A stretch of DNA of 4,609 nt, taken from IMG/VR virus record IMGVR_UViG_2563366830_000001, positions 1 to 4,609 of that record. One strand, 5' to 3'. Below the pieces are notes generated by a model. The model ran no database searches and was not told the DNA's origin. It was given only the letters and a program-made list of their open reading frames with translations. The first letter of the stretch is position 1. Each line of letters begins with the position of its first letter. This DNA comes from a virus. Taxonomy: Monodnaviria; Loebvirae; Hofneiviricota; Faserviricetes; Tubulavirales; Inoviridae. Positions 1 to 4,609 of this stretch are shown one piece after another. A program made the translations under genes and the position numbers.

Positions 1-201
1 TCAATAAGTTGGAGTCATTACCCCAGAAAAGCACTTCGCATCACTCAGATATGATTTAACATAATATACATTATGCGCACCAATGGTAAGGATGGCAGAA
101 ACTGGTTGGAATCGTTGATTGACTTTATTTAATTCAAGCTCTGACCCTGCGAAAGCACATGAAGAAAATAGTAGCGTTAATGCGAGTAAAATCTTTTTCA
201 T
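1..201 (-). CDS. Small ORF with N-terminal signal peptide, partial (runs off window start); reads through dif, so possibly a phage-chromosome chimera
   Basis: Start ATG at 199-201 overlaps the pI stop as TAATG. N-terminus MKKILLALTLLFSSCAFA/GSEL has a basic n-region, hydrophobic core and AXA-type cleavage motif. Residues 41-50 (GAHNVYYVKS) are encoded by the dif 28-mer itself. Confidence 0.4.
   Translation of the reverse strand: MKKILLALTLLFSSCAFAGSELELNKVNQRFQPVSAILTIGAHNVYYVKSYLSDAKCFSGVMTPTY
54..81 (-). other. dif: dif site (XerC/XerD site-specific recombination target); probable prophage attachment junction
   Basis: Plus strand 54-81 reads ATTTAACATAATATACATTATGCGCACC. Its reverse complement, GGTGCGCATAA-TGTATA-TTATGTTAAAT, is a 28/28 match to the canonical E. 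coli dif 28-mer as I recall it (XerC arm, 6-bp central region, XerD arm). The XerC arm (71-81) faces the prophage genes; the XerD arm (54-64) faces the left flank. Confidence 0.85.
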
Positions 202-1226
202 TATTTTTTCCCCGTATAAAGCGTCACACGCTCACCATCAATAATTCCGCTCATCAACATCCCTTTATAATTAAAACTGGATGCAGGAACGGCACGCAAA
301 ACACCGGCACCGTTAACAAGAATCACAAACGCCCTGCCTTCACTGGTCATTCTCCCTGATATACGCCACTCGGTTGAAAGTGACGGTTCAGCTGGTTCTG
401 AGGGAGTATCTGGTGCAGGAGTAGCAGCGGAAGAACGAAACATGGCCGCATCACGTACATCTGTTGTAGCCAAATCTGGCGAGGGATCGCTTCGGCCAAA
501 CGTGCTGAAAAATGAGTAAATCAGCCAGCCTGACCCGATAAACATCAATGGAAAAAGCACAAGAAAGAACCTGACTTTGCCAGAATTCCAGATGCTCTGG
601 CGTTTATCTGTCTGCTTTTCATTACCGTTATTTCCTTCATAGCTTTTATAAAGTTCAAAAATATCAGGGTTATATTTATTGCGATAACTGGTGACGAGGT
701 TGCTTTTATAGATTTTGTGGCCTGAATATACGTCAATGCAGTAATGATTATTCAGGCCCAACGCTTTCAGCTTGCGCATCCGGTAAGTTGTTTCTATTTT
801 GTCTTTCAGAAAGCGAGCAATATTAGAAAGTGACTGATTTACAATAACCAAATCACAGCTAATACCCGTTTCAGGGTGCGTAAAATGACGATGTTCAGCA
901 ATAAATGATTTCTTCTCAGCCGTCATATCCTTATCGCTACCGAAGATTCGCCATGCTTCATCAATAACAATTAAATCACCAAACTGGCAAAAGCTCCCTT
1001 CCCCACCTTTAAAAGGAAAGAAATCTGCTTTAAGTACATCATCATTATCCACAACAATAATTTCTCCCGTTGCATCAGGATAACGTTCGGTGATTTTATC
1101 TTTTTGTAAACCATAAATGTTCGTCACAACTCTCCGGCCGCTGGTAAATGCAGGAATAATGACATTGCAAACGGCTTCATAACTTTTTCCTGAGCCGGGT
1201 ATGCCAATATATGCAGAAATAGCCAT
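201..1226 (-). CDS. Zot-family / filamentous phage assembly protein pI (P-loop NTPase)
   Basis: 341 aa. Walker A GIPGSGKS at residues 8-15 (nt 1182-1205); Walker B-like LIVIDEAW at residues 85-92; single predicted transmembrane helix (VRFFLVLFPLMFIGSGWLIYSFF, residues about 218-240) followed by a Pro/Ser/Thr/Ala-rich linker and a C-terminal domain. This is the architecture of the Zot/pI family. Start is 3 nt after the pVI-like stop. Confidence 0.9.
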   Translation of the reverse strand: MAISAYIGIPGSGKSYEAVCNVIIPAFTSGRRVVTNIYGLQKDKITERYPDATGEIIVVDNDDVLKADFFPFKGGEGSFCQFGDLIVIDEAWRIFGSDKDMTAEKKSFIAEHRHFTHPETGISCDLVIVNQSLSNIARFLKDKIETTYRMRKLKALGLNNHYCIDVYSGHKIYKSNLVTSYRNKYNPDIFELYKSYEGNNGNEKQTDKRQSIWNSGKVRFFLVLFPLMFIGSGWLIYSFFSTFGRSDPSPDLATTDVRDAAMFRSSAATPAPDTPSEPAEPSLSTEWRISGRMTSEGRAFVILVNGAGVLRAVPASSFNYKGMLMSGIIDGERVTLYTGKK

Positions 1227-1229
1227 AAC

Positions 1230-1517
1230 TCACCCTATAACAGGAATACGTCGAATAATAAAACGAGTAGCCATTGAGGAGATAATCATACTAATCCCCT
1301 GTGGTAATTTACTCAGGTTAATGAAGTACCAGAATCCGTCTGATAAATTGGCAAACAGCGATGAGAGATTGCTTGAATCTGGCAGTAACTCAACAAGGAT
1401 TTCAACGAAGCCCTGGACTACAAAATACAGCGCAAAGAATACGACGAATTTAATAATCAATGACCGGAATACAAAACCTAACAAAGTATTTAATGCACTA
1501 ATCAGAATCCCAAACAT
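1230..1517 (-). CDS. pVI-like minor coat protein (small hydrophobic virion protein)
   Basis: 95 aa, very hydrophobic N-terminal half with two predicted membrane segments; size, composition and position between the pIII-like and pI-like genes match gene VI of Ff phages. A strong Shine-Dalgarno AAGGAG (reverse complement of 1524-1529) sits 6 nt upstream of the ATG and overlaps the pIII-like stop (TAAGGAG). Confidence 0.6.
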   Translation of the reverse strand: MFGILISALNTLLGFVFRSLIIKFVVFFALYFVVQGFVEILVELLPDSSNLSSLFANLSDGFWYFINLSKLPQGISMIISSMATRFIIRRIPVIG

Positions 1518-1529
1518 AGTTGCACTCCT

Positions 1530-2984
1530 TTAGGCACTCAGAATAATACGGAGCGCAACAAATCCCCATATAATCAGAAATATGGTTTCTACGGCGCTTC
1601 TGTTCTGCTCAATTAACGGACAATGGGAGTCAATTCTGTACTGGTGATTAAACACGCTGAATTCAATAACGGGGCAGGATGCTGAACGAGAGCCGATGTT
1701 AAATTCGTTTGTAAAAGGCAACAAGTTAATAATTGGCGTTAAAATATCTCTTGCCGTTGGCGTTTCTTCAAGCTCAGGCTCTTTTACACCGGGATCTTCT
1801 CCCAAATCTATATTGCCATTATTTCCAGTGTCAGATCCTGAGTTGTTATTAATGGTAATATCAATATTGACGTCAGCCCCTGCACTGTCAGATACAGGTG
1901 AAAGCATATCTAATAACGTTGGAGATAGCCTAAGTTCCGACATCGCAGAAGTTACTTCAGCCGGTGAAACCTCTTTAAACGGTAAGCCGTTATAATCGGC
2001 ATTAACGGCAGCTTCAGACCACAGCTCGTTAATCATGTCGGCAAGAAGTGCTGGCGATACACTAACACTATCAAGATACTCCAGATAATCAATCATGGAC
2101 TCAATATTTCCGGCCTCCAGTACTTCCGTCATGGCTTTATATTTGGTATTGGTCCAGATAGTAAGCTCACTCTTTTCATCAATATCTTTTGCGGTGTAAT
2201 CCTCTTTTTCAGGAACGGCGCAAATCGTCGAATATCCACCATTTGACTGATTAGTCGTTTTACAAGGCGTGTTGTGATACTGATATTGCTTTCCTGCTGT
2301 TAAATAAGCAACGCTGTAATACATGGGAAGCCCTGCTACATTTTCATACATGGGAATACCTGCGGGAAATGAAGATGCGGCCGGGTTGCTATACAAGTGT
2401 GTAATCTCAGGTATTTCATAAAATGAGGAAGGATAAGTAAACTTATAATTCTGTTCAGTAAAGGATACATCTCCATTACTGTTGACAACTTTATTCGTCA
2501 CAGTGCGTTCAAAATTCGTTAGTGTTTCAGTATAAGTACGCGAGTTATAGTCATTAAGATAATTTCTGGCAATTTCAGTTGGATTATCACCATAGTAATA
2601 AATTAGCTCTTTCGAATCCTGATAATAATAAAGCGCATTATCTGGCGTGGAATATCCTGTTTCAACACCTACAACTGGAGAACCCGCATCCACATTATTA
2701 CGACTAACATGAAGGATTACCGGACTTAATTCCTGTGGTTCAAAATTAACGGTTATCGTCTTACTTTCACCACTTTGACCACTGTACGTTACTTCATATA
2801 AATTATCGGAAATCTTTTTACCGTTAGTCATTACCATTACCGAGCCGTCAGATGAACTCAAAGAAGACGGAACAAAAGATGATACAGCAGCAGCAATACC
2901 CGCCCACGTTGTGACCTTGCAAAAACTTTGACGGATTGCCGTCAATATAGAGATGTGTTGCCCGACCTTCGCCATCAGATCCAA
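1530..2984 (-). CDS. pIII-like adsorption / minor coat protein; true start codon uncertain
   Basis: 484 aa in the longest ATG-initiated frame. Gly/Ser/Asn/Asp-rich linker (NNNSGSDTGNNGNIDLGEDPG) between domains; C-terminal Cys-containing segment followed by a hydrophobic anchor (TIFLIIWGFVALRIILSA) as in gene III proteins; located immediately upstream of the pVI-like gene. The first ~45 residues are not a classical signal peptide, and a signal-like segment (KVTTWAGIAAAVSSFVPSSLS) is internal. Confidence 0.7.
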   Translation of the reverse strand: MDLMAKVGQHISILTAIRQSFCKVTTWAGIAAAVSSFVPSSLSSSDGSVMVMTNGKKISDNLYEVTYSGQSGESKTITVNFEPQELSPVILHVSRNNVDAGSPVVGVETGYSTPDNALYYYQDSKELIYYYGDNPTEIARNYLNDYNSRTYTETLTNFERTVTNKVVNSNGDVSFTEQNYKFTYPSSFYEIPEITHLYSNPAASSFPAGIPMYENVAGLPMYYSVAYLTAGKQYQYHNTPCKTTNQSNGGYSTICAVPEKEDYTAKDIDEKSELTIWTNTKYKAMTEVLEAGNIESMIDYLEYLDSVSVSPALLADMINELWSEAAVNADYNGLPFKEVSPAEVTSAMSELRLSPTLLDMLSPVSDSAGADVNIDITINNNSGSDTGNNGNIDLGEDPGVKEPELEETPTARDILTPIINLLPFTNEFNIGSRSASCPVIEFSVFNHQYRIDSHCPLIEQNRSAVETIFLIIWGFVALRIILSA

Positions 2985-3141
2985 CAGATCTTACTTTCAT
3001 AGTGGATTCATACGAACCGCGAACGGTCAACCGTTTTACTGTTTCCCACTCCACTGCACCGTCAGCATCAACGCTGACGACACTACCAGCCGGTAATGGT
3101 CGGTGTATGCAAGGTAGGATCCCGGTAAACCAGTCAATCAT
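2848..3141 (-). pseudogene. Truncated N-terminal fragment of gene II-family rolling-circle replication initiator
   Basis: 97-aa ORF beginning MIDWFTGILP... with ...HLYIDGNPSKFLQGHNV. As I recall it, M13 gene II protein starts MIDMLVLRLPF... and has ...EYHIDGD...KVLQGHNVFG at a similar distance from the N-terminus. Family-like sequence ends right after LQGHNV (about nt 2905), then 16 non-family codons and a stop; full-length gII proteins are about 400 aa. Good Shine-Dalgarno (GAGG, reverse complement near 3149-3152) upstream of the ATG at 3139-3141. Confidence 0.6.
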
Positions 3142-3308
3142 GTATCGCCTCAGAGAACAATTTTGTGACCAGAAAGCCTGTCAAGAGCTTATTAGTACCA
3201 ATTCAGTCACACAAATGTACCACCCAAGATCTTACCTCTCAAGTGATTTTGTACTGGATAAGTGACATATTTGTTCTTTTGAAATGGAGCAAAAAAGTAG
3301 GATATAGA
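3142..3308. promoter_or_regulatory. Divergent intergenic control region between replication-initiator fragment and HTH regulator (putative promoters/operators)
   Basis: 167-bp non-coding gap flanked by divergently oriented start codons (3139-3141 minus, 3309-3311 plus). Contains repeated GTGAC/GTCAC-containing motifs (3165-3169, 3206-3210, 3262-3266; AAGTGA at 3241-3246 and 3260-3265). Individual -35/-10 elements could not be assigned confidently. Confidence 0.35.
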
Positions 3309-3761
3309 ATGAGCAACAACTTCAACAGTAATGGCTACCCGGAAGAAATGGCAGAAGACATAGACTTACAGCGGGCAGAAAGGATAAAAAAAGCGATCCT
3401 AAGCAAATTCACATACGAAAGGATGGAAGAACTGTCTGGCATCAACATTGGCACACTGAAACGGATCGCAAACGCACAGAGGGATGCGAAAATCAGTGAG
3501 CTGGAAAAAATTGCTGAAATCACTCAGACAGACATATTTGAACTGATTTTTGGCTCCAGTAGCAGTGATATCTACGATTCCAGCAAACGCTTCTTTGAGA
3601 CGAGAAGTAAAGATGCGGCTCAGGCGGCTCAATTCATCATCTACAATCTTCGTACCCTTGATGATGAGGACATCCTTTGTTTGGGGAGGGTTTCGAGTGC
3701 CTTGCAAACAGCAACAACATCAAGAAAATGGGATGAGCTTTTCGGGAAGAAGAAAGGCTGA
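3309..3761 (+). CDS. XRE-family helix-turn-helix transcriptional regulator, putative prophage repressor
   Basis: 150 aa from the ATG at 3309, which has a Shine-Dalgarno (TAGGA at 3298-3302) 6 nt upstream; the longer frame from 3165 has no such signal. Segment ...TYERMEELSGINIGTLKRIANAQRDAKISELEKIAEITQTDIFELIFG has the pattern of an XRE/Cro-CI-type HTH domain. It is divergent from the replication gene, as rstR is from rstA in CTXphi. Confidence 0.75.
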   Translation: MSNNFNSNGYPEEMAEDIDLQRAERIKKAILSKFTYERMEELSGINIGTLKRIANAQRDAKISELEKIAEITQTDIFELIFGSSSSDIYDSSKRFFETRSKDAAQAAQFIIYNLRTLDDEDILCLGRVSSALQTATTSRKWDELFGKKKG

Positions 3762-3806
3762 GTCTCAGAAATGAGACAAACGTGCAGTATTACCAACACT
3801 GCACGT
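3762..3806 (+). terminator. Two adjacent inverted repeats directly after the regulator stop codon; possible terminator and/or protein-binding site
   Basis: GTCTCA-gaaa-TGAGAC (3762-3777; 6-bp stem, 4-nt loop) and ACGTGCAGT-attaccaac-ACTGCACGT (3780-3806; 9-bp perfect stem, 9-nt loop). No T-run immediately follows the second stem (TTTTT only at 3821-3825), so it is not a textbook intrinsic terminator. Confidence 0.35.
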
Positions 3807-3845
3807 TCTGGATTGAGCGATTTTTAAACACCAGAAAAAGGGTAA

Positions 3846-4244
3846 ATGATGAACAAAACAGTGTATGTACCAAGCTACTTCCAGCCTATCTACAAAGAAG
3901 TAACCATCAAAGTTCCTACCGGAAACACAAAACGATTCCTGGGTCTCATCGACATTGAAGAAAAAATCCGAAAAAGAGAAGTTATTCAGGATGGCTGGTC
4001 TGATTGCCAGATTGACGGGGAAAGACTCAATGAAGATGTTGGTCGAGCCATTAATAAACTTAATCGGGAAGGGTATGAGGTTATTTCAATAACCCCTGCT
4101 ACCTCAGGAAGCTGGGCTTATAAATATAAACAAAACAGTATTCGTAATGGAAACGGTGATGGCAGTTATGGATATGGTTACGGTTATTCATACACCGAAG
4201 GCGTTATGATTCTGGCAAAGAAAATTGAGAAAGAGGACGTCTGA
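3846..4244 (+). CDS. Hypothetical soluble protein (132 aa) with C-terminal Gly/Tyr-rich repeat; first gene of a two-gene cassette
   Basis: Uninterrupted ORF with a purine-rich ribosome-binding site (AAGGG, 3837-3841) upstream of tandem ATGs (3846, 3849). No predicted transmembrane segment. The C-terminal half (GWSDCQIDGERLNEDVGRAINKLNREGYEVISITP...) may resemble a small DUF-type domain (DUF4177 is my unverified recollection). GNGDGSYGYGYGYSY at residues 102-116. Confidence 0.7.
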   Translation: MMNKTVYVPSYFQPIYKEVTIKVPTGNTKRFLGLIDIEEKIRKREVIQDGWSDCQIDGERLNEDVGRAINKLNREGYEVISITPATSGSWAYKYKQNSIRNGNGDGSYGYGYGYSYTEGVMILAKKIEKEDV

Positions 4245-4246
4245 TA

Positions 4247-4609
4247 ATGGATTTTATCCGTAAAACTTTGGGTGGATTAAAAGCAAGTTATTATATCCGT
4301 CACTTCGTTTTTGGTGCATTAATTTCAACTTTCTTTATTTACATGTCAATGCAAAATCCTGGAGGGGTGAAGGTTGAAAATATAATTTTCTTTTTTATCA
4401 ATGCGTTACTCTACCCTTACGCAAGATTTGTATATGAGCAAATCATTGGGTTCATCATGGGTGAAAATGTCTTTTTCATCAACGTCATAGTGATGCTAAC
4501 TGCCAAGATAATTACGATGTGTTTATGCTGGATATTTTCAGTATTCATAGCGCCAGTTGGATTGATATATCTCTACTATTATCATTCAAAAGCTGATAAA
4601 CAATTATAG
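4247..4609 (+). CDS. Small multi-pass membrane protein (120 aa); second gene of the cassette
   Basis: ATG at 4247 lies 2 nt after the upstream stop (TGATAATGG) with Shine-Dalgarno AAGAGGA (4231-4237). Three to four strongly hydrophobic segments (e.g. HFVFGALISTFFIYMSM, IIFFFINALLYPYARFVYEQIIGFIMG, VFFINVIVMLTAKIITMCLCWIFSVFIAPVGLIYLYYY). Stop codon TAG at 4607-4609. Confidence 0.7.
   Translation: MDFIRKTLGGLKASYYIRHFVFGALISTFFIYMSMQNPGGVKVENIIFFFINALLYPYARFVYEQIIGFIMGENVFFINVIVMLTAKIITMCLCWIFSVFIAPVGLIYLYYYHSKADKQL

Follow-up and report, generated by a model that had tools for sequence, protein, structure and literature searches.

The A/B cassette and its flanking signals

The sequence analyzed here is a stretch of 4,609 nucleotides from a filamentous virus of the Inoviridae (IMG/VR record IMGVR_UViG_2563366830_000001, positions 1 to 4,609), referred to as the window, which holds a defective prophage of the CUS-1/YpfPhi type, that is, a XerCD/dif-integrating filamentous phage, at the dif site of Escherichia coli. 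The genes in question are two adjacent open reading frames (ORFs) at its 3' end, named here gene A and gene B. An earlier reading of the sequence alone, the original prediction, had described them as a coupled cassette of a soluble and a small membrane protein next to the prophage repressor, and as a candidate accessory or phage-exclusion module. The features of the window are the following:

3846-4244, plus strand: gene A, encoding a soluble 132-aa protein (probably 131 aa, from the ATG at 3849) with an invariant C-terminal GYGYGYSYTEGV motif
4247-4609, plus strand: gene B, encoding a 120-aa predicted inner-membrane protein with four predicted helices (from hhalign, hmmsearch, structure model, and dN/dS)
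4233-4249, plus strand: coupling junction with a GAGGA ribosome-binding site (RBS), the A stop codon TGA (4242-4244), a 2-nt spacer, and the B start codon ATG (4247-4249), read from the sequence
3762-3835, plus strand: hairpins between the regulator and A (3762-3777, 3780-3806, and a weaker one at 3807-3835; minimum free energy -26.8 kcal/mol)
3309-3761, plus strand: helix-turn-helix (HTH) regulator in an RstR-like position (phrog_3557 transcriptional regulator, E 1e-68; weak HTH_3; PGAP WP_000069317.1)
54-81, minus strand: exact E. coli dif site, GGTGCGCATAATGTATATTATGTTAAAT (zero mismatches; 0 in 100 shuffles)

The A-B junction reads GTC TGA ta ATG, with the Shine-Dalgarno-like GAGGA (4233-4237) placed 9 nt 5' of the ATG of B, and the last base of the window is the end of the TAG stop codon of B. 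The AAGGG (3838-3842) in front of A lies 3 nt 5' of its first ATG and 6 nt 5' of the second one (3849), which from sequence comparison is the likelier start because the homologues begin with MNK. The two coupled ORFs at 3846-4609, each with an RBS, were thus found as originally predicted, including the TGAtaATG junction. The HTH regulator is immediately upstream of the cassette in the same orientation, and the hairpins at 3762-3777 and 3780-3806 follow its stop codon (z -3.5 for the hairpin region; 0 of 200 shuffles fold as well), which agrees with the predicted position of the cassette past the repressor and hairpins. No RNA family of Rfam was found in the window.

Both genes are annotated by PGAP, as hypothetical proteins only (A, WP_000981410.1; B, WP_000345758.1), and have homologues in the databases (n = 128 for A and n = 141 for B). 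The two genes are under strong purifying selection, with a ratio of nonsynonymous to synonymous substitutions (dN/dS) of 0.05-0.13, and 0.10-0.13 for B alone, in comparisons with the alleles of E. coli 82.0311, Pectobacterium, Photorhabdus, and a Pantoea plasmid, in which synonymous sites are near saturation. A and B are therefore real genes, beyond chance ORFs. The G+C content is 32.8% for B and 40.4% for A, with 37.5-44% in the other prophage genes.

Relation of protein B to the colicin E1 and K immunity proteins

The AlphaFold model of B (pLDDT 82) has four helices (residues 13-35, 43-71, 80-96, and 98-119), in line with the small multi-pass membrane protein that had been expected, and Lys/Arg residues are present at both termini. 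Its size and hydrophobicity fit a small inner-membrane immunity protein. In direct scans, B has no match in Pfam, NCBIfam, PADLOC, or PHROGs; the B of the window gives no Pfam match at E ≤ 0.1 and does not reach the gathering thresholds of PF03526 (ImmE1) and PF17500 (CKI). A sequence-profile search of the PDB gave no match for A or B. At the level of the family, sub-threshold matches to PF17500 and PF03526 were obtained for 12 and 11 of 62 homologues, respectively, and for 7 and 6 of 62 (best E 8e-6) in a more distant set, retrieved by searching 1.84 billion representatives.

The B-family profile was compared with ImmE1 (the imm ORF of plasmid ColE1) and Cki (cki of pColK-K235). In hhalign, repeated with two independent alignments of the B family, ImmE1 was matched at 95% (E 3-6e-8) over 93-96 columns of its 113 residues, and Cki at 59%, while hmmsearch gave 29.1 bits for ImmE1 and 15.4 bits for Cki. 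The controls were well below these values for ImmE1, with at most 10.1 bits for 1000 composition-preserving shuffles, at most 4% for hhalign on shuffles, and 1.2% for the unrelated membrane protein pVI; BLASTP recovers the relation between B and ImmE1 with an E of 2e-5. The homology of B and ImmE1 is hence statistically supported above the composition controls. The motifs common to B and ImmE1 include YYIRH..FG, LYPYARFVYE (LCPYSKYAIEY in ImmE1), and APVGL (IPFGL in ImmE1), and across B, ImmE1, and Cki they can be written as YYI[RK]..FG, L[YC]PY[AS][RK], and [AI]P[VF]GL.

Like ImmE1 (PF03526) and Cki (PF17500), B is small (96-120 aa in this group), very hydrophobic, predicted to be in the inner membrane, and alignable over nearly the full length. 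It differs from them in sequence, with an identity of about 27-29%, and in genetic setting, because the genes of the two colicin immunity proteins are antisense between a colicin and a lysis gene, whereas B has no adjacent colicin or lysis gene and is borne by phages, plasmids, and integrative elements across the Proteobacteria and beyond. Judged by these alignments, B belongs to the ImmE1/Cki superfamily as a divergent member, outside both Pfam families as now defined. The original prediction had recognized neither protein as part of a characterized family, which no longer holds for B as a homologue of the colicin E1/K immunity proteins, and the link between B and colicin immunity is apparently unreported before.

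Proposed role of protein B

Because B is a relative of the colicin E1 immunity protein, it is more likely to be a membrane shield than a killer. Here it is proposed, at a confidence that stays a little short of even, that B is an orphan immunity-type protein against a colicin-like bacteriocin or a contact-delivered pore-forming toxin, and that A and B are co-expressed cargo. ImmE1 has three transmembrane helices, and proteins of this type protect the cell within the inner membrane, where their helices make contact with the inserting ones of the colicin channel domain. By analogy with ImmE1, B would be placed in the inner membrane of the lysogen, where it could bind the membrane-inserting helices of an incoming pore-former and stop the opening of the channel. 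The likeliest target would be a colicin-like bacteriocin or a contact-delivered pore-forming toxin of competitors, and the protection would give a competitive advantage to the lysogen and, with it, to the prophage. A and B would then be co-expressed morons of the prophage, which together with a 22-codon ORF fill the slot between the RstR-like regulator and attP. A, which is linked to B in Enterobacterales only, is given no role in this proposal.

Several observations weigh against this assignment. In a phmmer search with the pore domains of ColE1 and ColK, no pore-forming colicin domain was found within 6 kb of the examined A/B loci except in ColE1 itself; no pore-forming colicin gene is linked to B, so that no cognate toxin was identified, and the linkage typical of imm genes is absent. 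The B of the window is itself below every Pfam threshold. Its four predicted helices differ from the three of ImmE1, and the segment aligned to the charged cytoplasmic loop of ImmE1 is hydrophobic in B. Since immunity proteins are narrowly specific, an identity of about 28% is uninformative on the toxin that would be blocked. A promoter scan gave no convincing promoter upstream of A, and the expression of the cassette in the lysogen is assumed. Finally, the tight coupling of A and B, conserved in three element contexts, hints at a joint function.

This proposal would provide the first functional lead for a cargo cassette of unknown role in the CUS-1/YpfPhi group, whose prophages have been linked to the fitness of extra-intestinal E. 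coli and of Yersinia pestis. The B family, comprising 529 clusters at 50% identity (E ≤ 1e-3) without any model in Pfam or NCBIfam, can now be described as distantly related to the colicin E1 immunity protein.

Distribution and genetic context of the B family

B is present on 65 viral contigs of IMG/VR, mostly tailed prophages of 20-60 kb, where it lies between NinG/Q-like genes and the holin/endolysin genes. Plasmid records with B number 93, among them conjugative PromA-type and Xylella plasmids, and B was also found in an integrative element of Salmonella and at the edge of a Cupriavidus prophage. In Xenorhabdus griffiniae (L059 5598-6884), B occurs alone in a different filamentous prophage, with a Phage_GPA-type replication protein, Zot, and DUF2523. 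Its neighbors there are a 72-aa ORF and a DUF2158 protein, and the UniRef label of the Xenorhabdus homologue is 'Colicin transporter', as NCBI labels some ImmE1 entries. In two contact-dependent growth inhibition (CDI) loci, B is immediately downstream of cdiB. The gene order in Variovorax (L062 6001-7384) and related metagenome contigs (L142-L144 5001-6452) is cdiA-cdiI-(orf)-cdiB-B, and B is followed by a conserved protein of 304-348 aa with an internal repeat, 79% identical between the loci. Pfam scans of the neighbors of B found no toxin in Variovorax, Pseudomonas, Xenorhabdus, and a PromA-type plasmid. Such an orphan, element-borne distribution is as expected of a protective gene.

The position in tailed prophages, immediately upstream of the holin (phrog_126) and endolysin (phrog_181), along with weak Phage_holin_4_2 matches in 3 of 62 members, could point to a holin- or antiholin-like protein for lysis timing, which would be incidental in a filamentous prophage. 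However, filamentous phages and conjugative plasmids carry B yet have no lysis cassette, the interval from Q to the lysis genes is a classic site for morons, and the relation to ImmE1 is far stronger than the holin matches; a lysis-timing role is accordingly regarded as extremely improbable.

The same range of carriers bears on a second explanation, in which B serves in superinfection or entry exclusion through an ImmE1-like block of an incoming pIII, a tape-measure pore, or conjugative entry, with A and the 22-codon peptide perhaps as accessories. The gene is next to the prophage regulator and shares its strand, and the filamentous prophages, tailed prophages, and conjugative plasmids that carry the family would all gain from exclusion. 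T4 Imm and HK97 gp15 resemble B as small prophage-encoded inner-membrane proteins, which have been proposed to block an entry pore-former in the manner of colicin immunity, and for T4 Imm it has been argued that the binding is to the pore domain of the tape-measure protein (bioRxiv 10.64898/2026.03.06.709160). In a BFVD search, however, no relation in sequence or fold was detected between these proteins and B. PfsE of Pf4 is a further membrane protein of phages for superinfection exclusion. Lysogens of YpfPhi are partly protected against superinfection, but this protection has been ascribed to the repressor (PMC4266046). In addition, the sole characterized relatives of B, ImmE1 and Cki, guard against bacteriocins and not phages, B has no PADLOC match, and it is also present at CDI loci and at chromosomal sites without phage genes in the examined flanks. 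On balance, exclusion is considered possible but rather unlikely. A broader version, in which the family would consist not of bacteriocin immunity proteins but of widespread, unannotated inner-membrane entry blockers of mobile elements, repurposed from an ImmE1-like protein and forming a three-part unit with A and the micro-peptide in Enterobacterales, is viewed as unlikely and somewhat more speculative. If B does protect the host membrane, from a pore-forming toxin or from an incoming phage, the prophage would thereby pay its way.

Association of A and B

The partnership of A and B was compared across genomes. Among 49 genomic loci of A, from Proteobacteria, Bacteroidota, and others, B adjoins A in three (Pectobacterium, Brenneria, and Photorhabdus) and is absent from the remaining 46; reciprocally, A adjoins B in 4 of the 65 viral loci of B and is missing in about 61. 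The pair is conserved in Enterobacterales only, in E. coli, Pectobacterium, Brenneria, Photorhabdus, Pantoea, and Kosakonia. There, the unit is carried by dif-prophages and a Pantoea plasmid and lies at the edge of tailed prophages of Kosakonia, and the tight or overlapping junction is kept in Pectobacterium, Brenneria, Photorhabdus, and Kosakonia. A and B are thus no general two-component module and travel jointly in Enterobacterales only. The co-occurrence expected of an obligate two-gene module was not found, contrary to the recurrent pairing of a soluble and a membrane protein on which the original prediction was built, and the lack of co-occurrence elsewhere that it had named as evidence against itself is largely what was observed. 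The suggested defense association was not recovered either, as no PADLOC-DB v2 defense model matched A or B at E ≤ 0.1.

These distributions bear directly on the originally suggested toxin-antitoxin, abortive-infection, or addiction module, with B as the toxic effector and A as its regulator or antidote. The translational coupling and the adjacency kept in dif-prophages, the Pantoea plasmid, and the Kosakonia tailed prophages would suit such a module, as would the toxin-antitoxin genes near the Pantoea copy and the weak holin- and GhoT-type Pfam matches in 1-3 of 62 members of B. B, however, has no A beside it in about 61 of 65 viral loci and in two inspected plasmids, and A has no B in 46 of 49 genomic loci, a separation that toxin and antidote could not bear if they were an obligate pair. 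The detectable homologues of B are protective immunity proteins, and no PADLOC match was obtained. Because the partners usually occur singly and the relatives of B are protective, the module is very unlikely, and the membrane component, which had been taken as the effector, would rather be a protective protein than a killer.

A small hydrophobic ORF usually follows the A-B unit, with 22-24 aa in dif-prophages and 68 aa in Kosakonia. In the host of the window, it is a 22-codon ORF, MSMETGVAIIILLVIVGKLIGL, at L001 12621-12689, 12 nt beyond the end of the window, and again at L001 19401-19469; it has its own AGGA RBS, which overlaps the stop codon of B. Versions of 22-24 aa are located 3' of B in E. 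coli 82.0311, Pectobacterium, Brenneria, and Photorhabdus, with dN/dS of 0.09-0.2. The Pantoea plasmid copy lacks this ORF, and Kosakonia has the 68-aa membrane ORF at the equivalent position. The cassette therefore probably consists of three genes, with the window ending before the third.

Protein A

The scans of A gave only phrog_15841, of unknown function, and a weak match to DUF4177 (PF13783), which with E 0.009 and 16.7 bits is below the Pfam cut-off of 25, so that A does not qualify as a member; weak DUF4177 matches were also present in 10 of 58 homologues of A. Residues 49-88 of A resemble the DUF4177 core in having a helix and then a G[YF]E[VI] strand, but A has twice the length of the domain and also has an N-terminal beta-hairpin and a Gly/Tyr-rich strand. 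A is an independent and widely scattered family without a recognizable fold or family assignment. Outside Enterobacterales, the 49 genomic loci showed no conserved neighbor of A, and small membrane proteins beside it show no enrichment and no relation to B. In two distant loci of the A family, from Sulfurovaceae and Enterovibrio (L034 5583-5885 and L035 5674-5976), a different protein of 100 aa is directly upstream of A; these two proteins have 2-3 predicted membrane helices, share 28% identity (E 1e-15), and have no relation to B.

For one DUF4177 protein, PEG 446 of Clostridium tyrobutyricum, a bacteriocin-like character has been reported (PMC11322243). By analogy, A could be a small antibacterial protein and B its dedicated immunity protein, a reading to which the weak DUF4177 matches of A, the immunity-like character of B, and its translationally coupled position 3' of A lend themselves. 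A relation of A to PEG 446 itself was ruled out, as the A profile reached only 2% in hhalign, and the DUF4177 score remains at 16.7 of the 25 bits. Moreover, A lacks a signal peptide, a leader, and a lysis/export gene, and in 46 of 49 loci it has neither B nor another conserved partner, which would be lethal if A were toxic to its own cell. A bacteriocin and immunity pair is consequently held to be highly improbable.

Cargo status and the exchangeable slot

The chromosome of E. coli MS 196-1 is 100% identical to the window. In this strain, the prophage is located between the ydeT fimbrial pseudogene and hipA as a tandem duplicate, and both copies have A and B. Strain SW070919 contains the intact phage of 8.85 kb, which repeats with A and B inside the repeat unit. 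Downstream of B, in order, are the 22-codon ORF, an inverted dif-like half-site, a hairpin, and a hybrid dif site, GGTGCGCATAATGTACGACTCGTTATGT, 156 bp past the stop codon of B, which combines the XerC arm of dif with a phage-derived XerD arm and is attP-derived; this site is followed by either a further prophage copy or the hipA flank. Because A and B are in the tandem repeat unit and upstream of the attP-derived hybrid dif site, the cassette is inside the phage genome and is cargo rather than chromosomal flank. This settles a question that the original prediction had left open in favor of the prophage cargo that it had suggested. The dif site at 54-81 is the junction of prophage and chromosome on the side of the prophage opposite the cassette. 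A scan allowing up to 9 mismatches found no other dif-like site in the window, so the predicted lack of a second site between cassette and prophage also stood.

The cassette occupies a cargo slot of the CUS-1/YpfPhi type, which extends from the RstR-like regulator to attP/dif within the phage unit and is variable in content. In YpfPhi, two ORFs of unknown function are located by the RstR-like gene, and CUS-1 has unrelated ORFs instead (PMC4266046). The left flank of the slot (window 3761-3852), with the hairpins, the RBS, and the start codon, is 86% identical among prophages with different cargo, and the right flank is the attP region (L001 12695-12794), with inverted dif-like half-sites around a hairpin. 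Between these flanks, MS 196-1 has A, B, and the 22-codon ORF; UTI89, of the CUS-1 lineage, has a 140-aa and a 369-aa ORF; and strain M19 has ORFs of 140 aa and 264 aa and a DUF6953 ORF. Strain 82.0311 has a diverged A/B allele (79% nucleotide identity) with the other allele of the regulator. This pattern suggests that cassettes are exchanged through recombination in the conserved flanks of the slot.

Of 5426 complete E. coli genomes, 14 have the A/B cassette, in 1-5 copies that are all chromosomal, and the 140-aa ORF that opens the cargo of UTI89 and M19, which differ in their downstream genes, is present in 128 of the same genomes. A and B are thus rare accessory genes and new cargo in an already known type of slot. 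They share with the attL-adjacent ORFs of YpfPhi (YPO2271/YPO2272) and CUS-1 (orf1/orf1a) the type of phage, the position after the RstR-like regulator and before attP/dif, the orientation, the unassigned function, a content that varies between related phages, and the conserved flanks. The differences are in the content, as the CUS-1 lineage of O18:K1:H7 strains (UTI89) has the unrelated 140-aa and 369-aa ORFs, and in the number of ORFs, two in those phages and three here. No Y. pestis entries were found among the named members of the A and B clusters. A looser parallel is the lysogenic-conversion cargo of other inoviruses, such as ctxAB of CTXphi, also at the edge of a dif-integrating filamentous prophage and outside the replication, assembly, and secretion modules (PMC4266046). 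Unlike ctxAB, the cargo described here is at the regulator/attP end, encodes no toxin, and appears to be protective rather than related to virulence.

Other genes and deletions of the window prophage

The genes of the prophage in the window are a truncated pIV, Zot/pI, DUF2523, a pIII to which the first ~80 codons of the replication protein are joined, and the HTH regulator. A megablast of the window and a tblastn of A gave no match among the phage records of GenBank. Because of two deletions relative to the intact phage of SW070919 (2069 and 2068 bp), the copy in the window is defective. The 2069-bp deletion (window 118/119) removed two small ORFs and most of pIV, while the 2068-bp deletion (window 2911) joined the N-terminus of the replication protein to pIII, with the loss of gV, gVIII, and a small ORF. 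The second deletion is common to both copies in MS 196-1, in which PGAP annotates pseudogenes; the regulator and the cargo are nevertheless intact.

At the opposite end of the window, the matches of other genomes begin at position 23, and positions 1-22 are presumably the end of an IS1 element, as judged by its inverted repeat. A 66-aa ORF on the minus strand (window 1-201), annotated as hypothetical, is a chimera of the pIV signal peptide, dif, and flanking DNA, and runs into this IS1 end, which is 31 bp from dif.

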